From Deltaproteobacteria bacterium (lineage in GTDB: Bacteria > Myxococcota_A > UBA9160 > JAJDAL01): a DNA stretch of 64,000 nt. The stretch lies in NCBI GenBank assembly GCA_029261875.1, contig JAJDAL010000034.1, positions 85,066 to 149,065 on the forward strand. The letters are read 5' to 3'. Below, one piece after another: positions 2 to 18,085 of the stretch. Positions within the stretch are counted from its first letter, which is position 1. Each line of letters opens with the position of its first letter. A program made the translations under genes and the position numbers. The notes beneath the pieces were generated by a model. The model was not told where the DNA came from. It ran no database searches and worked only from the letters and a program-made list of their open reading frames with translations.

Positions 2-553
2 GGACTAGAAACTGCGGACACCGCTGGCAACGGCCACGACGGTGACCTCATCGGTGGCGACACAGTTGCTTCGTGGGGCACCAATCCGCCTGGTTCGGGC
101 GCAGACTCGGATGGTGACGGCATCCTCGATGGTTTCGATAACTGCGTAGATGACGCCAATCCCGGCCAGGAAGACGCCGACTCCGACCAGGTCGGCGACG
201 CGTGTGACGAGTACCCCGACGACCCCGACAATGAGCAAGCACAGTGCGAAGTAGACCTTGATCAGTGCCTGCTGATCCCGCCGTTCGTGGATTCAGACCA
301 GGACGGTGAAGACGACTCCACGGATTCATGCCTCGACACCCCGGAAGCTGAGACTGTCGATGGCAATGGCTGCTCCATCGATCAGTTTTGTTCAGTCATT
401 AGTGCTGCAGATCGCACCGGTAGCCGGACCTGCAAGAAGGCGGATTGGCATAACGACGAACCACTCATGCGAGGTCGCGAGCGAGACTGCACGATAAACA
501 AGCAGGGTCGTGGAAGGGATGACGACCTCTGCGTTCCCAATCCCGAATCGTAG
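2..553 (+). CDS. Secreted TSP3-repeat protein (A-family copy A1), 5'-truncated by the window edge, ending in the conserved Cys-rich C-terminal module (A-CTD)
   Basis: The frame of listed ORF 287..553 stays open back to nt 2. The translation GHDGDLIGGDTVASWGTNPPGSGADSDGDGILDGFDNCVDDANPGQEDADSDQVGDACD is a close paralog of the middle of 6720..7877. D-x-D-x-DG-x-x-D-x-C TSP3-type repeats are present. The tail GCSIDQFC..CKKADWHNDEPLMRGRERDCT..CVPNPES recurs at 4751..5014 and 17414..17683. Confidence 0.8.
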   Translation, partial: GLETADTAGNGHDGDLIGGDTVASWGTNPPGSGADSDGDGILDGFDNCVDDANPGQEDADSDQVGDACDEYPDDPDNEQAQCEVDLDQCLLIPPFVDSDQDGEDDSTDSCLDTPEAETVDGNGCSIDQFCSVISAADRTGSRTCKKADWHNDEPLMRGRERDCTINKQGRGRDDDLCVPNPES

Positions 554-3832: not shown

Positions 3833-5014
3833 ATGCGTCTCGTTGTCTGTCCGGTGTCTGCCCGCGACATCACCATTGTTGTAGCTGCTCACCTCTGTGC
3901 TCTTCTACTTGGACCAGCGGCTTCGGCGCAAGCTCCGATCAACCTCGAATATCTCTTCAGTCAGTCGGACAACCTGCGGGGTTCTTCAAATAATATTCAG
4001 CTCCGGACGAGAGTGGACGGCGTCACCCAGCCGTTCAACAGCATGTCGATTCAGCACGACGACCTACTGGTAACGATCTCAACCGAGATCTCTGCCAACC
4101 GTAGAACAGCTTCATTCTCCTCGATCGAGTTCTTTGCGTCCTACGCGAGTCCTTCCTTTGACGGAGAGTTCGATCTTGGCTTCGACGGCAAGGTTCCCTT
4201 TCGATTGACGGTCAGGGAGCTGGAATTCCACTGCCTGAACATCAACGCAAATCTAGCCATCAACTTGAACTTTGATGAAACCTTTTCATTCTGCGATGGA
4301 ACACTCACCACAGTATTCGAGGTACTCGGAAACACCGAAACAGTAGTGGAGACTCATCAGTCGGGTATCAACTTGCGGGGCACTTTCATTCCGACGCCCG
4401 ATCTGTCTGAGGTCGCAATAGAGATCTATACAGAGGTCGCCGCTACCTTCGACAACGACGCGTTCAATCTCAATGCGCTCGGACACTCTTTGGAGTTGCA
4501 GCCGAATCTCAGGCTGGTGTTGGATCTTCGGGGCTCTGCTGAATCAGACGCTCCACCACCACCGATTCCGGATGCCGATGGGGACGATGTTCCCGATATT
4601 CGAGACAACTGCCCCGACGAGGCCAACTCAGATCAGTTGGATAGAGATTTCGATTTCGTAGGCGACGCTTGCGACCCCTTCCCCGACGACCGCGACAATG
4701 AACAAGCCGAGTGTGAGGCGGATCTCCTCCTCTGCCAGATCAGCCCCGTATTCGTAGACACCGACGGTGACGGCGAAGATGACTCCACGGATTCATGCCC
4801 GGCCACTCCCGCCGCCCAGGAGGTTGATGGCGACGGCTGCTCTCTGGACCAGTTCTGCGGGCTGGTTGATGCCTCAGACCGAACCGGTAGTCGCGTCTGC
4901 AAAAAGAGCGACTGGAAGAACGACGAGCCGATCATGAAGTCGCGCGATAGGGACTGCACTGTGGATCGGGGTGACAGGGGCAGGGAGGACGATCGATGCG
5001 TTCCGTCCGTCTGA
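3833..5014 (+). CDS. Secreted A-family protein A2: unknown N-domain, TSP3 repeats, short Cys-heptad segment and A-CTD
   Basis: Leader with AASAQA. TSP3 repeats DADGDDVPDIRDNCPDEANSDQLDRDFDFVGDACDPFPDD. Then DNEQAECEADLLLC, followed by the tail GCSLDQFC..CKKSDWKNDEPIMKSRDRDCT..CVPSV. Confidence 0.85.
   Translation: MRLVVCPVSARDITIVVAAHLCALLLGPAASAQAPINLEYLFSQSDNLRGSSNNIQLRTRVDGVTQPFNSMSIQHDDLLVTISTEISANRRTASFSSIEFFASYASPSFDGEFDLGFDGKVPFRLTVRELEFHCLNINANLAINLNFDETFSFCDGTLTTVFEVLGNTETVVETHQSGINLRGTFIPTPDLSEVAIEIYTEVAATFDNDAFNLNALGHSLELQPNLRLVLDLRGSAESDAPPPPIPDADGDDVPDIRDNCPDEANSDQLDRDFDFVGDACDPFPDDRDNEQAECEADLLLCQISPVFVDTDGDGEDDSTDSCPATPAAQEVDGDGCSLDQFCGLVDASDRTGSRVCKKSDWKNDEPIMKSRDRDCTVDRGDRGREDDRCVPSV
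4751..5014 (+). repeat. Partial hinge copy (A-CTD only)
   Basis: FVDTDGDGEDDSTDSC..GCSLDQFC..CVPSV is paralogous to 284..553. The start context gatcgatgcgttcc of the following gene resembles the B-gene start context. Confidence 0.7.
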
Positions 5015-6719: not shown

Positions 6720-7877
6720 ATGAGGCACTGGATCATCGCCATGTTACTCGGGCTCTCGACCCTTGCAGGAAAATCCAGCGCATTCGACAACGACTTCCAC
6801 GTGGTGCTCAACGGAATTGGCCGAGAGGTGATCGCCAACGACAGTTACACCGGAATCCTGGACACCGATGCCCGCACGATCAGTTGGTGGTACCGGTCGC
6901 ACATAGGGACGTTTCCATCCGTCTGGGGAATCATCTACTGGGGACAGACATGGTCCATTCAGCTGGAAGGTTTTGATGGCGGAAGTATCAACTGCGAGTG
7001 CGGGGGGAACAAGATCGCATGGACAGCGAACAACAACCCTGCGATGGGCTCTCTCCAGAATTGGCAATGGCATCACATAGTGATGACCGCTCCAGCGGGT
7101 GGAACTTACGGCGACATCAGGCTCTACTTGGATGGTGTTTTGCTCCCGACCCCCTCAGTGGTCGGAGGTAGCTTCGCAAACAGCTACGACACGATTCCGT
7201 TCATTCCCTATCGGGCAGGAGCGCGGAACCTCGGCAACCACGCAGACGCCGACATGGACGAAATCGCGCTGTGGGATGCAGAACTTAACGCGTCGGCAGT
7301 AGCGGAGATTTTCAACGGTGGGATTCCAACCGACCTTGAAGTCAACGGTGCTTCCTACACCAACGCGGGAGACCTTCAGCTCTACTGGAGATTCGAGGAA
7401 GGCAGCGGGCTGGAGACAGCTGACGTAACGGAGAGCGGTCACGACGGTGACCTCATCGGCGGTGACACGGTTTCATCCTGGGGAACCAACCCGCCGGGCT
7501 CAGGCTCCGACTCGGACGGCGATGGAATCCTCGACGGTTTCGACAATTGCGTGGACGACGCCAATCCTGGGCAGGAGGACGCTGATTCAGATCTAGTTGG
7601 AGACATCTGCGATCCCTTCCCCAGTGACCCAGACAACGAGCAGGCGCAATGCGAAGTGGACCTGGCTGATGCCGAAGCCGCTGCGAATGCTTGTTTCGGT
7701 GCAGCCCCAGCGTGCAGCGACGGGGTTGACAACGACAACGATGGATTTATCGACTTCTCGGGAAACGACCCCGAGTGTGTCACGGCGTTAGACAACGCCG
7801 AGGGATGCGGACTTGGCGCTGAACTGGTTCTACTAATCCCGCTGTTGCAACGGATACGCCGCAAGCGATCTTTTTAG
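6720..7877 (+). CDS. Secreted LamG (concanavalin-A-like) - TSP3 protein with a GC-TM-RRR (MYXO-CTERM-like) tail
   Basis: Leader MRHWIIAMLLGLSTLAGKSSA. LamG_3-type motifs DARTISWWYRS, WHHIVMTA, GDIRLYLDGVL and DMDEIALWDAELNASAVAEIFNGG. TSP3 repeats. Tail EGCGLGAELVLLIPLLQRIRRKRSF. Confidence 0.85.
   Translation: MRHWIIAMLLGLSTLAGKSSAFDNDFHVVLNGIGREVIANDSYTGILDTDARTISWWYRSHIGTFPSVWGIIYWGQTWSIQLEGFDGGSINCECGGNKIAWTANNNPAMGSLQNWQWHHIVMTAPAGGTYGDIRLYLDGVLLPTPSVVGGSFANSYDTIPFIPYRAGARNLGNHADADMDEIALWDAELNASAVAEIFNGGIPTDLEVNGASYTNAGDLQLYWRFEEGSGLETADVTESGHDGDLIGGDTVSSWGTNPPGSGSDSDGDGILDGFDNCVDDANPGQEDADSDLVGDICDPFPSDPDNEQAQCEVDLADAEAAANACFGAAPACSDGVDNDNDGFIDFSGNDPECVTALDNAEGCGLGAELVLLIPLLQRIRRKRSF
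7797..7874 (+). other. Putative C-terminal sorting signal (Gly-Cys, hydrophobic helix, Arg/Lys cluster)
   Basis: AEGCGLGAELVLLIPLLQRIRRKRSF has the architecture of the MYXO-CTERM / GC_trans_RRR class of exosortase-type tails. This is pattern recognition only. Confidence 0.55.
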
Positions 7878-15830: not shown

Positions 15831-16409
15831 ATGTTGAAACAGACTCTTGTTCTCTTGGTCATGTTGGTTCTAGTTCCTGGCATCGCGGCTACCGAGACGA
15901 TCAACGGCTGTGTCCACCAGAAGTCCGGGAAGCTTCGGATCGTCGGTATTCCGGGACAGTGCAAGAGCAGCGAAGCACCGATCTCTTGGGAGGCTGAGGG
16001 ACCGCCCGGTCCCGAAGGGGCGAAGGGAGATAAGGGCGATAAAGGTGACCCCGGTGATCCCGCACCCCAGGCACAGCCGGTGGAACTCGTAGGTTTTACC
16101 GCGGCGCAAATCGCTGGCACGGACTCGTTCTTCGCGCTCAACACAGCCTGCGTCGATGAATTCCCCGGTAGTCACTTCTGCACAGCCACAGACATTGCAC
16201 AAGTATCCGTTCTGCCTGCCGGACTCATAGGCGATGCGTGGTTTACGCCAGCGCCCGGTCCAGATCTCAACTTCTTGAGCAGTTCTCGTGCCTGTAGTGG
16301 CTGGTCGCCTGGTGGCTCAACTGGCCTCCGCATCAATCACATCGGCGTAATAGTTCAGGGTGTGTGTAACCAATCCTTTTCGGCATCGTGCTGCGCACCC
16401 GCACCGTAA
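15831..16409 (+). CDS. Secreted Q-family collagen-like protein Q2
   Basis: CAGGAG lies 7 nt before the ATG. Leader MLKQTLVLLVMLVLVPGIAA. ETINGCVHQKSGKLRIVGIPGQCKSSEAPISWE. Seven G-X-Y triplets. C-domain VELVGFTAAQIAGTD..ACVDEF..FC..ACSGWSPGGSTGLRINHIGVIVQGVCNQSFSASCCAP. Confidence 0.8.
   Translation: MLKQTLVLLVMLVLVPGIAATETINGCVHQKSGKLRIVGIPGQCKSSEAPISWEAEGPPGPEGAKGDKGDKGDPGDPAPQAQPVELVGFTAAQIAGTDSFFALNTACVDEFPGSHFCTATDIAQVSVLPAGLIGDAWFTPAPGPDLNFLSSSRACSGWSPGGSTGLRINHIGVIVQGVCNQSFSASCCAPAP
15999..16061 (+). repeat. Collagen-like G-X-Y tract (7 triplets) in Q2
   Basis: GPP GPE GAK GDK GDK GDP GDP read directly. Confidence 0.8.
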
Positions 16410-16411
16410 CC

Positions 16412-17683
16412 ATGGCGTTTCGATTCAGACTTCCCGAGGCTCCTATGAAATGTGTCCATGTATTCGTTCTCCTCAGTTCCATGTTCCTTCTCGCGCCCCG
16501 AGCTACAGCGGAGATGGTGCCGCTGTTGATTGACCCGGTTTCAATCTCCGTCTCTGTCAGGATCACACAAGGCGAAGGTGCGCCGGTCGAGACAGACAAT
16601 TCAGGTACTGCTTCGGCATCCGCGCAGCTACATAGGAACTTGCTTAGTAATTCTTTCGGCGAGGGCAGTTTAAGCGCAGCCGTAGAAGCCGACCGGATCA
16701 GTTTTGCGGGAGCCGCTAGTGGCTTTAATACCGCAGGGGTCGGTAGTAGCCTAGTTAGGATTGTCTTGAGTAGCGAACTGGAGGTTGCGTTTGATGTCCC
16801 CGATATCGGATTTGCGCTTACGCCGGTCGTCCTGCAGTTCGTCAATGTTTCTCCTCCGAGCGCAACAATATCCATCTCATTCTTCAGCACACTTCTGAAC
16901 GCTGAGCTAACTACCCTCAATCAGACGATAGGTTCTGAAGATGCAGTTGTCCTCGACCTCCTTCCCGGAGATCGGATTATTGTCTCCGGAACCGTACAGG
17001 CTGGTGCCTTGTTCGTTCCCCCTTTCAACGGATCGGGGTCATTCTCAAACTCGTCCCAGTTCCGTTTTCAGGTATCGGACAATCCGAACAACCTTGTCGA
17101 GTGCCAGTCGAACCTCACTCAATGCGTCTCCGATTTGGGGGGTTGTTTGACCAATGCCGCAACCTGCGAGTCCGATCTAAATCTGGCCTTGGGGGATCTC
17201 GCATCGTGTAACGCAACCCTCACCCAACTGGCAACAGATGTTGCTTCATGTAACGACAGCCTTACCGCGTGCTCCACCGACCTCACACAAACGACAACCA
17301 GTCTCTCCCAATGCAGTACCGCTCTCGATTCTACAAGCACGCAGCTATCTGAGGCGCAATCGAGTCTAGACGCAGCCCTCTCCGATTTGGCGCAATGCCT
17401 TTTAGATCCCGGACTACAAGACAGTGATGGTGATGGCGTTCCAGATCCAGGAGATCTATGCCCAAACACAGCCACTACCGATCTCGCCGACGCCCTGGGC
17501 TGTTCACTCCACCAATTTTGCTCGATGGTCAACGCTACGAATCGAGTTGGCAGTCGGGTCTGCAGGAAATCCGATTGGGTCAATGATGAACCTCTGATGA
17601 AGGGTCGCGAGCGAGACTGCACGATCGACAAACGCGGCCGCGGACGAGATGACGATCTCTGCGTGCCCAATCCAGAATTCTAG
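16412..17683 (+). CDS. Secreted A-family protein A3: unknown N-domain, about 100 aa of heptad Cys/Leu coiled-coil-like segment, one TSP3 unit and A-CTD
   Basis: The ATG lies 3 nt after the Q2 stop; an alternative ATG at 16445 gives MKCVHVFVLLSSMFLLAPRATA. Tail DSDGDGVPDPGDLCPNTATTDLADALGCSLHQFC..CRKSDWVNDEPLMKGRERDCTIDKRGRGRDDDLCVPNPEF. Confidence 0.8.
   Translation: MAFRFRLPEAPMKCVHVFVLLSSMFLLAPRATAEMVPLLIDPVSISVSVRITQGEGAPVETDNSGTASASAQLHRNLLSNSFGEGSLSAAVEADRISFAGAASGFNTAGVGSSLVRIVLSSELEVAFDVPDIGFALTPVVLQFVNVSPPSATISISFFSTLLNAELTTLNQTIGSEDAVVLDLLPGDRIIVSGTVQAGALFVPPFNGSGSFSNSSQFRFQVSDNPNNLVECQSNLTQCVSDLGGCLTNAATCESDLNLALGDLASCNATLTQLATDVASCNDSLTACSTDLTQTTTSLSQCSTALDSTSTQLSEAQSSLDAALSDLAQCLLDPGLQDSDGDGVPDPGDLCPNTATTDLADALGCSLHQFCSMVNATNRVGSRVCRKSDWVNDEPLMKGRERDCTIDKRGRGRDDDLCVPNPEF
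17093..17398 (+). repeat. Heptad-periodic Cys/Leu segment (coding)
   Basis: Cys-to-Cys spacings are 7,7,7,14,14,7,14,28 residues. Leu/Val sits 3 residues before each heptad end. Counted directly in LVEC QSNLTQC VSDLGGC LTNAATC ESDLNLALGDLASC NATLTQLATDVASC NDSLTAC STDLTQTTTSLSQC ...LSDLAQC. Confidence 0.85.
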
Positions 17684-18085
17684 ATAGGAAATTCGATGCG
17701 TTCCTTTAGCCGAGTTTCTTTAGTACTAGCCACTGTAACTTTCGCGATGACTGGTCATGCCATTGACCTACCTGTGACCTACCTCGCCGACTTCAAGGAG
17801 TTCAGGCGAAACGCCATCGCTGGCGATTCACTCTCCTTCGACCTCTACACCGACGACGCCTGCACGGGGGTCGTGGCTCACGCGGAACTGAAGTTCGTGG
17901 GCGGTTCCGGGCTCACCGTCGAGAAGACGCTGCCCCAGAAGGCCAAGGGTCAGAAGCCGTCACCGACGAAGGGCGTGCGGCTCCACACGACGCTGTCGCC
18001 CGCGGCGGTGGCCGAGCAGCTCTACTTGAAGGTGACGGGCACCGGCGTCGTCGCGTTGGGAGATGAGTGCCAAGTGCAGGTGGCG
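17414..18085 (+). repeat. Conserved 'hinge' copy 2: A-CTD, 12-nt spacer and B N-domain
   Basis: See 284..985. The flanks (A body upstream, B head downstream) are unrelated between the two copies. Confidence 0.8.

Follow-up and report, generated by a model that had tools for sequence, protein, structure and literature searches.

What holds a rod together when nine cysteines run along it at multiples of seven residues and its core offers a single large hydrophobic residue per heptad? The question is raised by a gene, here called A3, that lies in a 64,000-nucleotide stretch (the window) of contig JAJDAL010000034.1. Its host is an uncultured Binatia bacterium, known from a 5.68 Mb metagenome-assembled genome (MAG) that is 94% complete. 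All coordinates given here are positions within the window, and residues of A3 are numbered along its 431-amino-acid open reading frame (ORF), which starts at GTG 16388. The original prediction held that the cysteine ladder is an oligomerisation stalk locked by inter-chain disulfides, and that this would fit a pairing with trimeric collagen-like partners, the B proteins. A disulfide-stapled coiled coil is likely in A3, as a parallel homodimer rather than a trimer. The explanation favored here, that the stalk is a parallel, in-register, disulfide-bonded homodimer, brings helix, export, oxidation, and spacer function together and is held at somewhat better than even confidence.

Translation of 17093..17398 in the frame of the ORF 16388..17683 gives LVECQSNLTQCVSDLGGC...DLAQC. 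The ladder cysteines are residues 239, 246, 253, 260, 274, 288, 295, 309, and 337. Their spacings of 7, 7, 7, 14, 14, 7, 14, and 28 are exactly those counted in the original prediction, and all nine share one heptad phase. The probability that nine randomly phased cysteines would fall in a single modulo-7 class is approximately 1.7e-7. A Leu, Val, or Ala is located three residues ahead of the cysteine position in 15 heptads, where about 14 heptads with hydrophobic residues and Cys at positions a and d had been proposed. The Leu-x-x-Cys-x-x-x spacing places Leu at a and Cys at d. Across the stalk, position a reads LLLALLLVLLLLLLL (13 Leu, 1 Ala, and 1 Val), position d reads CCCCACLCCTCTAAC (9 Cys, 3 Ala, 2 Thr, and 1 Leu), and position g is chiefly Asp, Asn, or Ser. 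None of 5000 shuffles equalled the sequence in the 3.5-residue periodicity of its LIVMFC residues. The 105 residues of the stalk (235–339) include no Lys or Arg and 12 Asp plus Glu. In a six-frame scan of the whole assembly (28,765 stop-to-stop frames of at least 100 amino acids), A3 is the only frame with more than six in-phase cysteines.

The stalk is predicted with high confidence to be alpha-helical. AlphaFold2 (AF2), run with a 20-sequence alignment, modelled helices at residues 234–253 and 260–339 with a predicted local distance difference test (pLDDT) score of 70–93. The stalk is also helical in the single-sequence run, with a pLDDT of 53–67. Heptad periodicity, as in an alpha-helical coiled coil, is present in the A3 sequence, and the alpha-helix is present in the AF2 prediction only. 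Together, the clean a/d heptads and the modelled helix give the ladder the coiled-coil propensity that had been expected of it. One continuous helix of this size would be approximately 15 nm long. The weak profile matches of the ladder are to coiled-coil families only (SEC10/PgrA, MCE, HrpB7, SMC, M protein, and Lpp). The best matches in the PDB are non-significant and are likewise all coiled coils (M protein, SMC, Lpp, and the P22 tail needle). Sequence and profile searches of the PDB found no solved structure of such a ladder.

The position of the cysteines was then compared with disulfide geometry, using an ideal alpha-helix wound by Crick's equations. In a parallel dimer (R0 4.9 Å), the d-d' distances are 6.0 Å for Cα-Cα and 3.5–4.0 Å for Cβ-Cβ, and the a-a' Cβ-Cβ distance is 5.5–6.3 Å. 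In a trimer, the d-d' distances are 6.5–8.7 Å for Cα-Cα and 4.6–6.5 Å for Cβ-Cβ. In a tetramer, the d-d' Cβ-Cβ distance is 5.5–6.8 Å. Only the d-d' values of the parallel dimer lie in the usual disulfide window, and the cysteine geometry is in that arrangement compatible with inter-chain disulfides. The A3 cysteines occupy core positions with the geometry for symmetric inter-chain bonds of the type found in PLVAP and CEP135. By the published rule (PMC6146289), a parallel coiled coil makes its disulfides from d to d', and an antiparallel one makes them from a to d'. Antiparallel or hairpin packing would leave the A3 cysteines without a cysteine partner, because position a is Leu. Residues i and i+7 of one helix are about 10 Å apart, the number of ladder cysteines is odd (nine), and the head of the protein contains no cysteine; the stalk cysteines therefore need another chain. 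No other ladder protein is encoded in the genome, so the partner of A3 should be a second copy of A3.

The same distances bear on a trimeric coiled coil with three cysteines in each d layer, an arrangement that might match the neighbouring trimeric collagen-like or C1q-headed B proteins. Leu at a, small residues at d, and some Leu or Val at e are compatible with a trimer, and the polar, Ser/Thr/Asn-rich stalks of phage needles and Lpp, which are among the weak PDB matches, are trimers. Each trimeric layer would, however, leave one of its three thiols unpaired, at d-d' distances wider than those of the dimer. A trimeric cysteine zipper has worked only with cysteines paired at the adjacent positions g and a (PMC4476739), and the single cysteine per heptad of A3 does not supply such a pair. 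A trimer is considered unlikely. Here the original prediction stands in part: helix, heptads, cysteines at d, and an odd cysteine count all suit a stalk locked between chains, and it is the trimeric form that is not supported.

Register bears on a different possibility, in which A3 is a covalent cross-linker. Its in-phase cysteines would bond to those of a shifted copy, or to other cysteine-rich secreted proteins, and build disulfide-linked fibres or a matrix. Spacings that are multiples of seven would let staggered alignments pair three to five cysteines, and the gene island encodes many cysteine-rich, matrix-type secreted proteins. Against this, an in-register A3 pair matches all nine cysteines and a staggered alignment at most five, and the genome again offers no other ladder protein. 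The cross-linker is regarded as quite unlikely. In the favored homodimer, the irregular gaps of the ladder may help to set the register.

The proposed arrangement is as follows. Residues 235–339 would form one long amphipathic alpha-helix in which Leu takes position a and Cys position d. Once A3 has been exported by the Sec pathway, two of its chains would lie parallel and in register. Every d-layer cysteine would then be bonded to the equivalent cysteine of the second chain, and as many as nine symmetric disulfides would make up a covalent "cysteine zipper". Because the surface is polar and acidic and each heptad has a single large hydrophobic residue, the rod would owe its cohesion to these covalent rungs and not to hydrophobic or ionic contacts; the rungs would in effect stabilise an otherwise poor coiled coil. 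The stalk would serve as a dimerising spacer that fixes the distance between the head of the protein and its C-terminal module. Export, cysteine oxidation, the dimeric state, and the spacer function are all steps that we infer. With regard to oxidation, the genome encodes three DsbA-like proteins with a thioredoxin fold (L021–L023) and CPFC or CKVC motifs. One of these is a lipoprotein with a lipobox, and one is membrane-anchored.

Several observations weigh against the homodimer. The AF2 helix is broken at residues 254–259 (LTNAAT), just after a GG at 251–252, and the stalk has a helix-poor composition, with about 47% Ser, Thr, Asn, Gly, and Asp. The only Foldseek matches of the AF2 model are helical hairpins, and these are non-significant (E above 3). 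In the AF2 monomer model, the segment with the first three rungs may double back against the long helix. Some members of the wider ladder class described below contain two Gly or one Pro per heptad, a composition that a continuous helix would not easily tolerate. The combination of Leu at a with several Leu or Val at e is also one that higher-order bundles could accommodate. Each chain carries a net charge of about −12, and the two chains should repel one another unless this charge is screened, for example by calcium. A search of the 94%-complete genome detected no homologue of DsbB or VKOR.

The helix break and the Foldseek matches would suit a monomeric helical hairpin or bundle, with a few cysteines paired within the chain or buried unpaired. 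Cys253 and Cys260, and Cys239 and Cys274, would mirror one another around the loop. Antiparallel packing would nevertheless set a against d', and a is Leu in A3. The short first helix could cover three of the nine rungs at most, it is common for AF2 to fold a helix back in a monomer run when the real protein is oligomeric, and the matches themselves are non-significant. The hairpin is very improbable on this evidence.

The failure to detect DsbB and VKOR would fit a thiolate-lined bundle of three or four helices that binds soft metals, comparable to designed Cys3 coiled coils and Csp1, with the cysteines kept reduced by the metal. Cysteine layers that alternate with Leu in a helical core have the geometry of such metal sites, which counts in favor of this possibility. 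No His or Met lies beside the ladder cysteines, however, and no metal-binding family was matched in Pfam or NCBIfam. The related proteins whose necks carry one to three cysteines resemble structural staples rather than storage sites, and the modules next to the stalk, a thrombospondin type 3 (TSP3) repeat and the tail, are classic disulfide-rich extracellular modules. Metal binding of this kind is given a very low probability. As a separate observation, the genome in which DsbB and VKOR were not detected nevertheless encodes many cysteine-rich secreted proteins.

The homodimer is considered here in the context of the whole A3 protein, which is composed of the following parts.

16445..17683, plus strand: the A3 gene as given in the ORF list, 412 amino acids from ATG 16445.
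16445..16510, plus strand: predicted Sec signal peptide MKCVHVFVLLSSMFLLAPRATA, read by eye from an n-h-c pattern and an A-x-A site.
16511..17089, plus strand: beta-rich N-terminal head, residues 42–234, from AF2 strands of low confidence; contains no cysteine.
17090..17404, plus strand: heptad stalk, residues 235–339, 15 heptads, from the heptad pattern and the AF2 helix.
17417..17482, plus strand: single TSP3 (calcium-binding) repeat DSDGDGVPDPGDLCPNT, with a sub-threshold Pfam TSP_3 score of 17.6 bits (cut-off 25).
17483..17680, plus strand: cysteine-rich tail of approximately 65 residues, GCSxxQFC...CKKxDWxNDEPxM...DC...C, from alignments and an AF2 pLDDT of 78–96.

The mechanical ORF on the plus strand extends from 16388 to 17683. 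A GAGG sequence is located 7 nucleotides upstream of ATG 16445, which is likely the true start. The protein gives a 100% self-match to its own genome, at C34. Export through Sec would follow from the signal peptide pattern; cleavage is predicted before E42, and Cys22 would be removed with the peptide. The head has no family match in Pfam or NCBIfam. The D, G, and C columns of the TSP3 repeat are invariant in 20 of 20 aligned family members. The tail contains five invariant cysteines in addition to that of the TSP3 repeat, and a Foldseek search with the AF2 model found no fold match for it in the PDB. The mature protein would contain 15 cysteines, nine in the ladder, six invariant ones in the TSP3 repeat and tail, and none in the head.

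The tail connects A3 to a Binatia-specific family of secreted proteins. It is present in four further proteins of the A3 genome and at 15 loci of other genomes, nearly all of them MAGs of Candidatus Binatia or "Deltaproteobacteria". A3 carries 18 of the 18 invariant columns in the 20-sequence tail alignment (D-x-D-G-D-G..C..GCS..QFC..C-K-K-x-DW-x-NDEP-x-M..DC..C). The heads of the family are interchangeable and include LamG, C-type-lectin-like, and pectate-lyase-like beta-helix domains, as well as an unnamed GWGHGLD domain. All members have a helix-like neck that starts ...E-L/Q-A-Q-C-x-x-D-L and lies ahead of the last TSP3 repeat, after the head or after any earlier TSP3 repeats. Necks range from 1 to 15 heptads in length, with one heptad in A1, A2, L004, and L007, and 10 to 15 in L006, L019, L054, P0018, and A3. 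In 19 of the 20 necks, Leu occupies a and the cysteines all keep to one phase at d; in the remaining neck, that of L019, one residue is inserted. The long neck of L054 is mostly cysteine-free and is built of ordinary helix-forming residues. The cysteine count is odd in 12 necks and is a single cysteine in 6, which would fit homotypic staples that range from one to many. Since a heptad neck occurs in all members of the tail family, the A3 ladder reads as an expanded form of it and not as an isolated oddity. The short versions that the original prediction placed in other A-type proteins are present in the window at the following positions.

242..268, plus strand: one-heptad neck QCEVDLDQC of paralogue A1.
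4709..4735, plus strand: one-heptad neck ECEADLLLC of paralogue A2.
7647..7694, plus strand: two-heptad version QCEVDLADAEAAANAC of a LamG protein without the tail.

The short-neck paralogues (window 194–550 and 4655–5011, and L004 on contig C2 of the same genome) also have cysteines spaced 14, 7, 21, and 14 residues apart. These are the cysteine of the preceding TSP3 repeat, the two of the neck, that of the next TSP3 repeat, and the first of the tail. The multiple-of-seven spacing in these paralogues could be coincidence or a structural constraint.

A full-length orthologue of A3 was not found; the genomes searched all lie outside its genus and family. A word-indexed homologue search with the whole of A3 returned tail relatives only, and with the ladder alone it returned no matches. 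The nearest architectural counterpart outside the A3 genome is a 773-amino-acid Binatia protein (L006, 2183–4501) that combines a cysteine-rich, pectate-lyase-like beta-helix head with a nine-rung ladder and the TSP3/tail module. The unnamed head, NGxQGWGHGLD(F/Y)GLIH...DDP(S/T)D...RHQTF(T/V)T, occurs in L009, L011, L012, L015, L016, and L017, all from Binatia MAGs, and L015 has two genes with this head in tandem. One tail-family match in a related genome (L063, G143 C5:75331-75627) contains an in-frame TGA, which may mark a pseudogene or be an error of sequencing.

The family also provides the evidence on the proposed pairing with B proteins, and with it on the trimer that would match them. 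B3, a gene with a C1q-like head, begins 13 nucleotides after the A3 stop (the gap is window 17684–17696), a closeness that could be taken in favor of a shared trimer. Since only these 13 nucleotides separate the two genes, A3 and B3 are probably co-transcribed here. The Gly-X-Y tracts of the B proteins are only about five triplets long, however. Five B N-domains were searched by tblastn against 17 loci and were found beside none of the 15 tail-family genes in other genomes and neither of the two elsewhere in the A3 genome; the tail-family genes of those loci thus stand without a B-type neighbour. The A-type tail and the B N-domain were not neighbours in any other locus examined. The proposed pairing with trimeric B partners is not borne out, as this pattern of neighbours is joined by a geometry that favors the dimer.

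An exhaustive phmmer search was made with A3 residues 228–345 against 1.84 billion representative proteins. A ladder protein was defined as one with at least eight cysteines in one heptad phase and Leu three residues before them, a definition that includes A3 with its nine. The search returned 36 matches, and 27 of these have 8 to 32 in-phase rungs, so that the C-x6-C heptad ladders sought in other proteins do exist. Pooled over the 27 proteins, a is Leu in 79% of cases, d is Cys in 71%, and g is Asp, Glu, or Asn in 75%; positions b, c, and f are small residues. Vacant rungs are mostly occupied by Ala, Arg, Ser, Thr, Leu, or Val. In six proteins (P0021, P0023, P0014, L040, L041, and L044), the ladder runs in register into canonical, charged coiled-coil heptads. 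One protein (P0018) combines the ladder with a TSP3 repeat and an A3-type tail, and others have Lcl_C/DUF1566 at the end or RTX repeats at the start.

The ladder proteins come from metagenomes, a Micrarchaeota archaeon, and a fish, and all are unnamed or "hypothetical". An N-terminal hydrophobic segment is present in 16 of the 24 complete ones, which indicates that these are exported or membrane-anchored. Neither A3 nor 10 further ladder proteins matched a Pfam or NCBIfam model for the ladder; only coiled-coil families appeared, below threshold. The class is recognisable by sequence and uncurated, and both common descent and convergence are compatible with its unity. The assignment of helices to its Gly- or Pro-rich members is made with lower confidence than that for A3.

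Composition and rung counts across the class bear on one further possibility, a tight, non-helical solenoid with disulfides between Cys(i) and Cys(i+7) bisecting its coils. This would be comparable to the 12-residue coils of beetle antifreeze proteins, with a pentapeptide-like x-[DN]-L-x-x pattern. A composition rich in Gly, Asn, Asp, and Thr would suit it, as would a G-x-x-x-G or a Pro in every unit of some class members. Such bonds would require a cysteine seven residues away, however, and Cys274, Cys309, and Cys337 of A3 have none on either side. The class has no preference for even rung counts (14 proteins even and 13 odd), and 79 of its 397 rungs, or 20%, are isolated in the same sense. 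The AF2 model is helical, the ladder is in phase with canonical coiled coils, and no pentapeptide family was matched in Pfam. The solenoid, too, is given a very low probability. A3 does not belong with the beetle antifreeze type, which needs even counts and adjacent partners, since it has nine rungs of which three are isolated. It is not a pentapeptide repeat protein either, with no Pfam match and a period of 7 (3.5 for apolar residues).

Extended to the class, the homodimer reading becomes more tentative. It is possible, at somewhat less than an even chance, that the A3 stalk belongs to a natural repeat class (L-x-x-C-x-x-D, 8 to more than 30 rungs) in which two parallel helices are zipped at nearly every heptad. 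This would give a covalent, probably hyperstable, and length-adjustable stalk to exported proteins of bacteria, archaea, and eukaryotes, a class with no curated family or solved structure.

A phylum-wide profile search matched 23 of 401 genomes, and genuine ladders among these are few (L024, L025, L032, L040, L041, and L044). Many of the matches come from 21-bp DNA minisatellites translated in whichever frame was taken, with units such as CRRRLGR, CRSGLGE, and CETSLRR (L028, L029, L033, L035, L036, L042, L045, L046, L048, and L049). The cysteine heptads of these minisatellites are probably non-coding or in the wrong frame, and they are a trap for automatic surveys of cysteine ladders. Tandem Repeats Finder detected no DNA-level tandem repeat beneath the A3 ladder; a recent origin from a 21-bp minisatellite is therefore ruled out for A3. 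A fish protein of 2291 amino acids (P0038, from Dallia pectoralis) and a metagenomic one (P0041) have a cysteine every 14 residues, with 8–23 rungs, within charged coiled-coil repeats VQNCRVELESSKSELQNC. These two may be a eukaryotic relative or a convergent analogue of the ladder.

If the homodimer is correct, the stalk would be a rod of a different design, in which covalent rungs replace the hydrophobic and ionic interface. Such a rod would permit a surface that is almost charge-free or acidic and rich in Ser and Thr. It would also explain how one protein of a modular set of secreted binding proteins holds its head approximately 15 nm from the shared TSP3/tail module. Confirmation of the dimer would provide protein engineering with a natural template for covalent, register-defined, and length-tunable spacers. 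It would also give annotation a new repeat family for proteins that are now all called "hypothetical".

To our knowledge, disulfide-linked coiled coils have one or a few such bonds only, and five in PLVAP. A literature search for natural cysteine heptad ladders found only engineered zippers and the unrelated CX6C motifs of retroviral envelopes, a limited search that is no proof that the class is undescribed. The closest comparison is the CC1 segment of PLVAP, a parallel dimeric coiled coil with five symmetric disulfides in 89 residues (PMC10083539). As proposed for A3, it is extracellular and two-stranded, its symmetric inter-chain disulfides come from core cysteines, and the disulfides compensate for non-ideal heptads. 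The PLVAP spacing is irregular (11, 25, 21, and 25), whereas the nine cysteines of A3 all lie at d within 99 residues. PLVAP is a membrane protein of animals and A3 would be a bacterial secreted protein, and there is no sequence similarity between them (PLVAP did not appear in the PDB searches). In CEP135 82–144, and in parallel dimeric coiled coils with engineered d-d' disulfides, a homotypic d-d' bond links the two strands (PMC6146289). The same d-position rule would apply to A3, but the bond there is a single rung in an intracellular protein, used to aid crystallisation.

An engineered "cysteine zipper" has also been placed in the trimeric stalk of RSV F, with two adjacent cysteines (g and a) in each ring (PMC4476739). 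It shares with A3 the cysteine layers every seven residues and, as proposed, a covalent oligomer in a coiled coil. It is man-made and trimeric, whereas A3 has a single d cysteine per heptad. Thrombospondin, COMP, and matrilin resemble A3 in being secreted proteins that combine a coiled coil, inter-chain disulfides, TSP3 repeats, and a C-terminal globular module. Their cysteines are gathered in a ring that terminates a cysteine-free three- or five-stranded coil, whereas A3 has no CxxC ring and, by Pfam, no TSP_C, EGF, or vWA domain. With TSP_C absent and TSP_3 below the cut-off, A3 is not a member of the thrombospondin family. The A-repeats of M protein (PDB 9mmx) have similar polar heptads with a single Leu (LTTENKN compared to LTTCNGD in A3) and belong to a surface rod that is a parallel dimer. 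In place of the ladder cysteines, M protein carries Glu or Gln; it has no disulfides, and the match (E = 0.076) is no evidence of homology.

By analogy, the A3 stalk would be closest in its working to the PLVAP dimer and to the d-d' staples of CEP135, and it is a member of none of the systems compared. What appears new in A3 is the density and regularity of its rungs, with Cys at d in 9 of 15 heptads and up to 32 rungs in its relatives, within an uncurated repeat class that has no structure.

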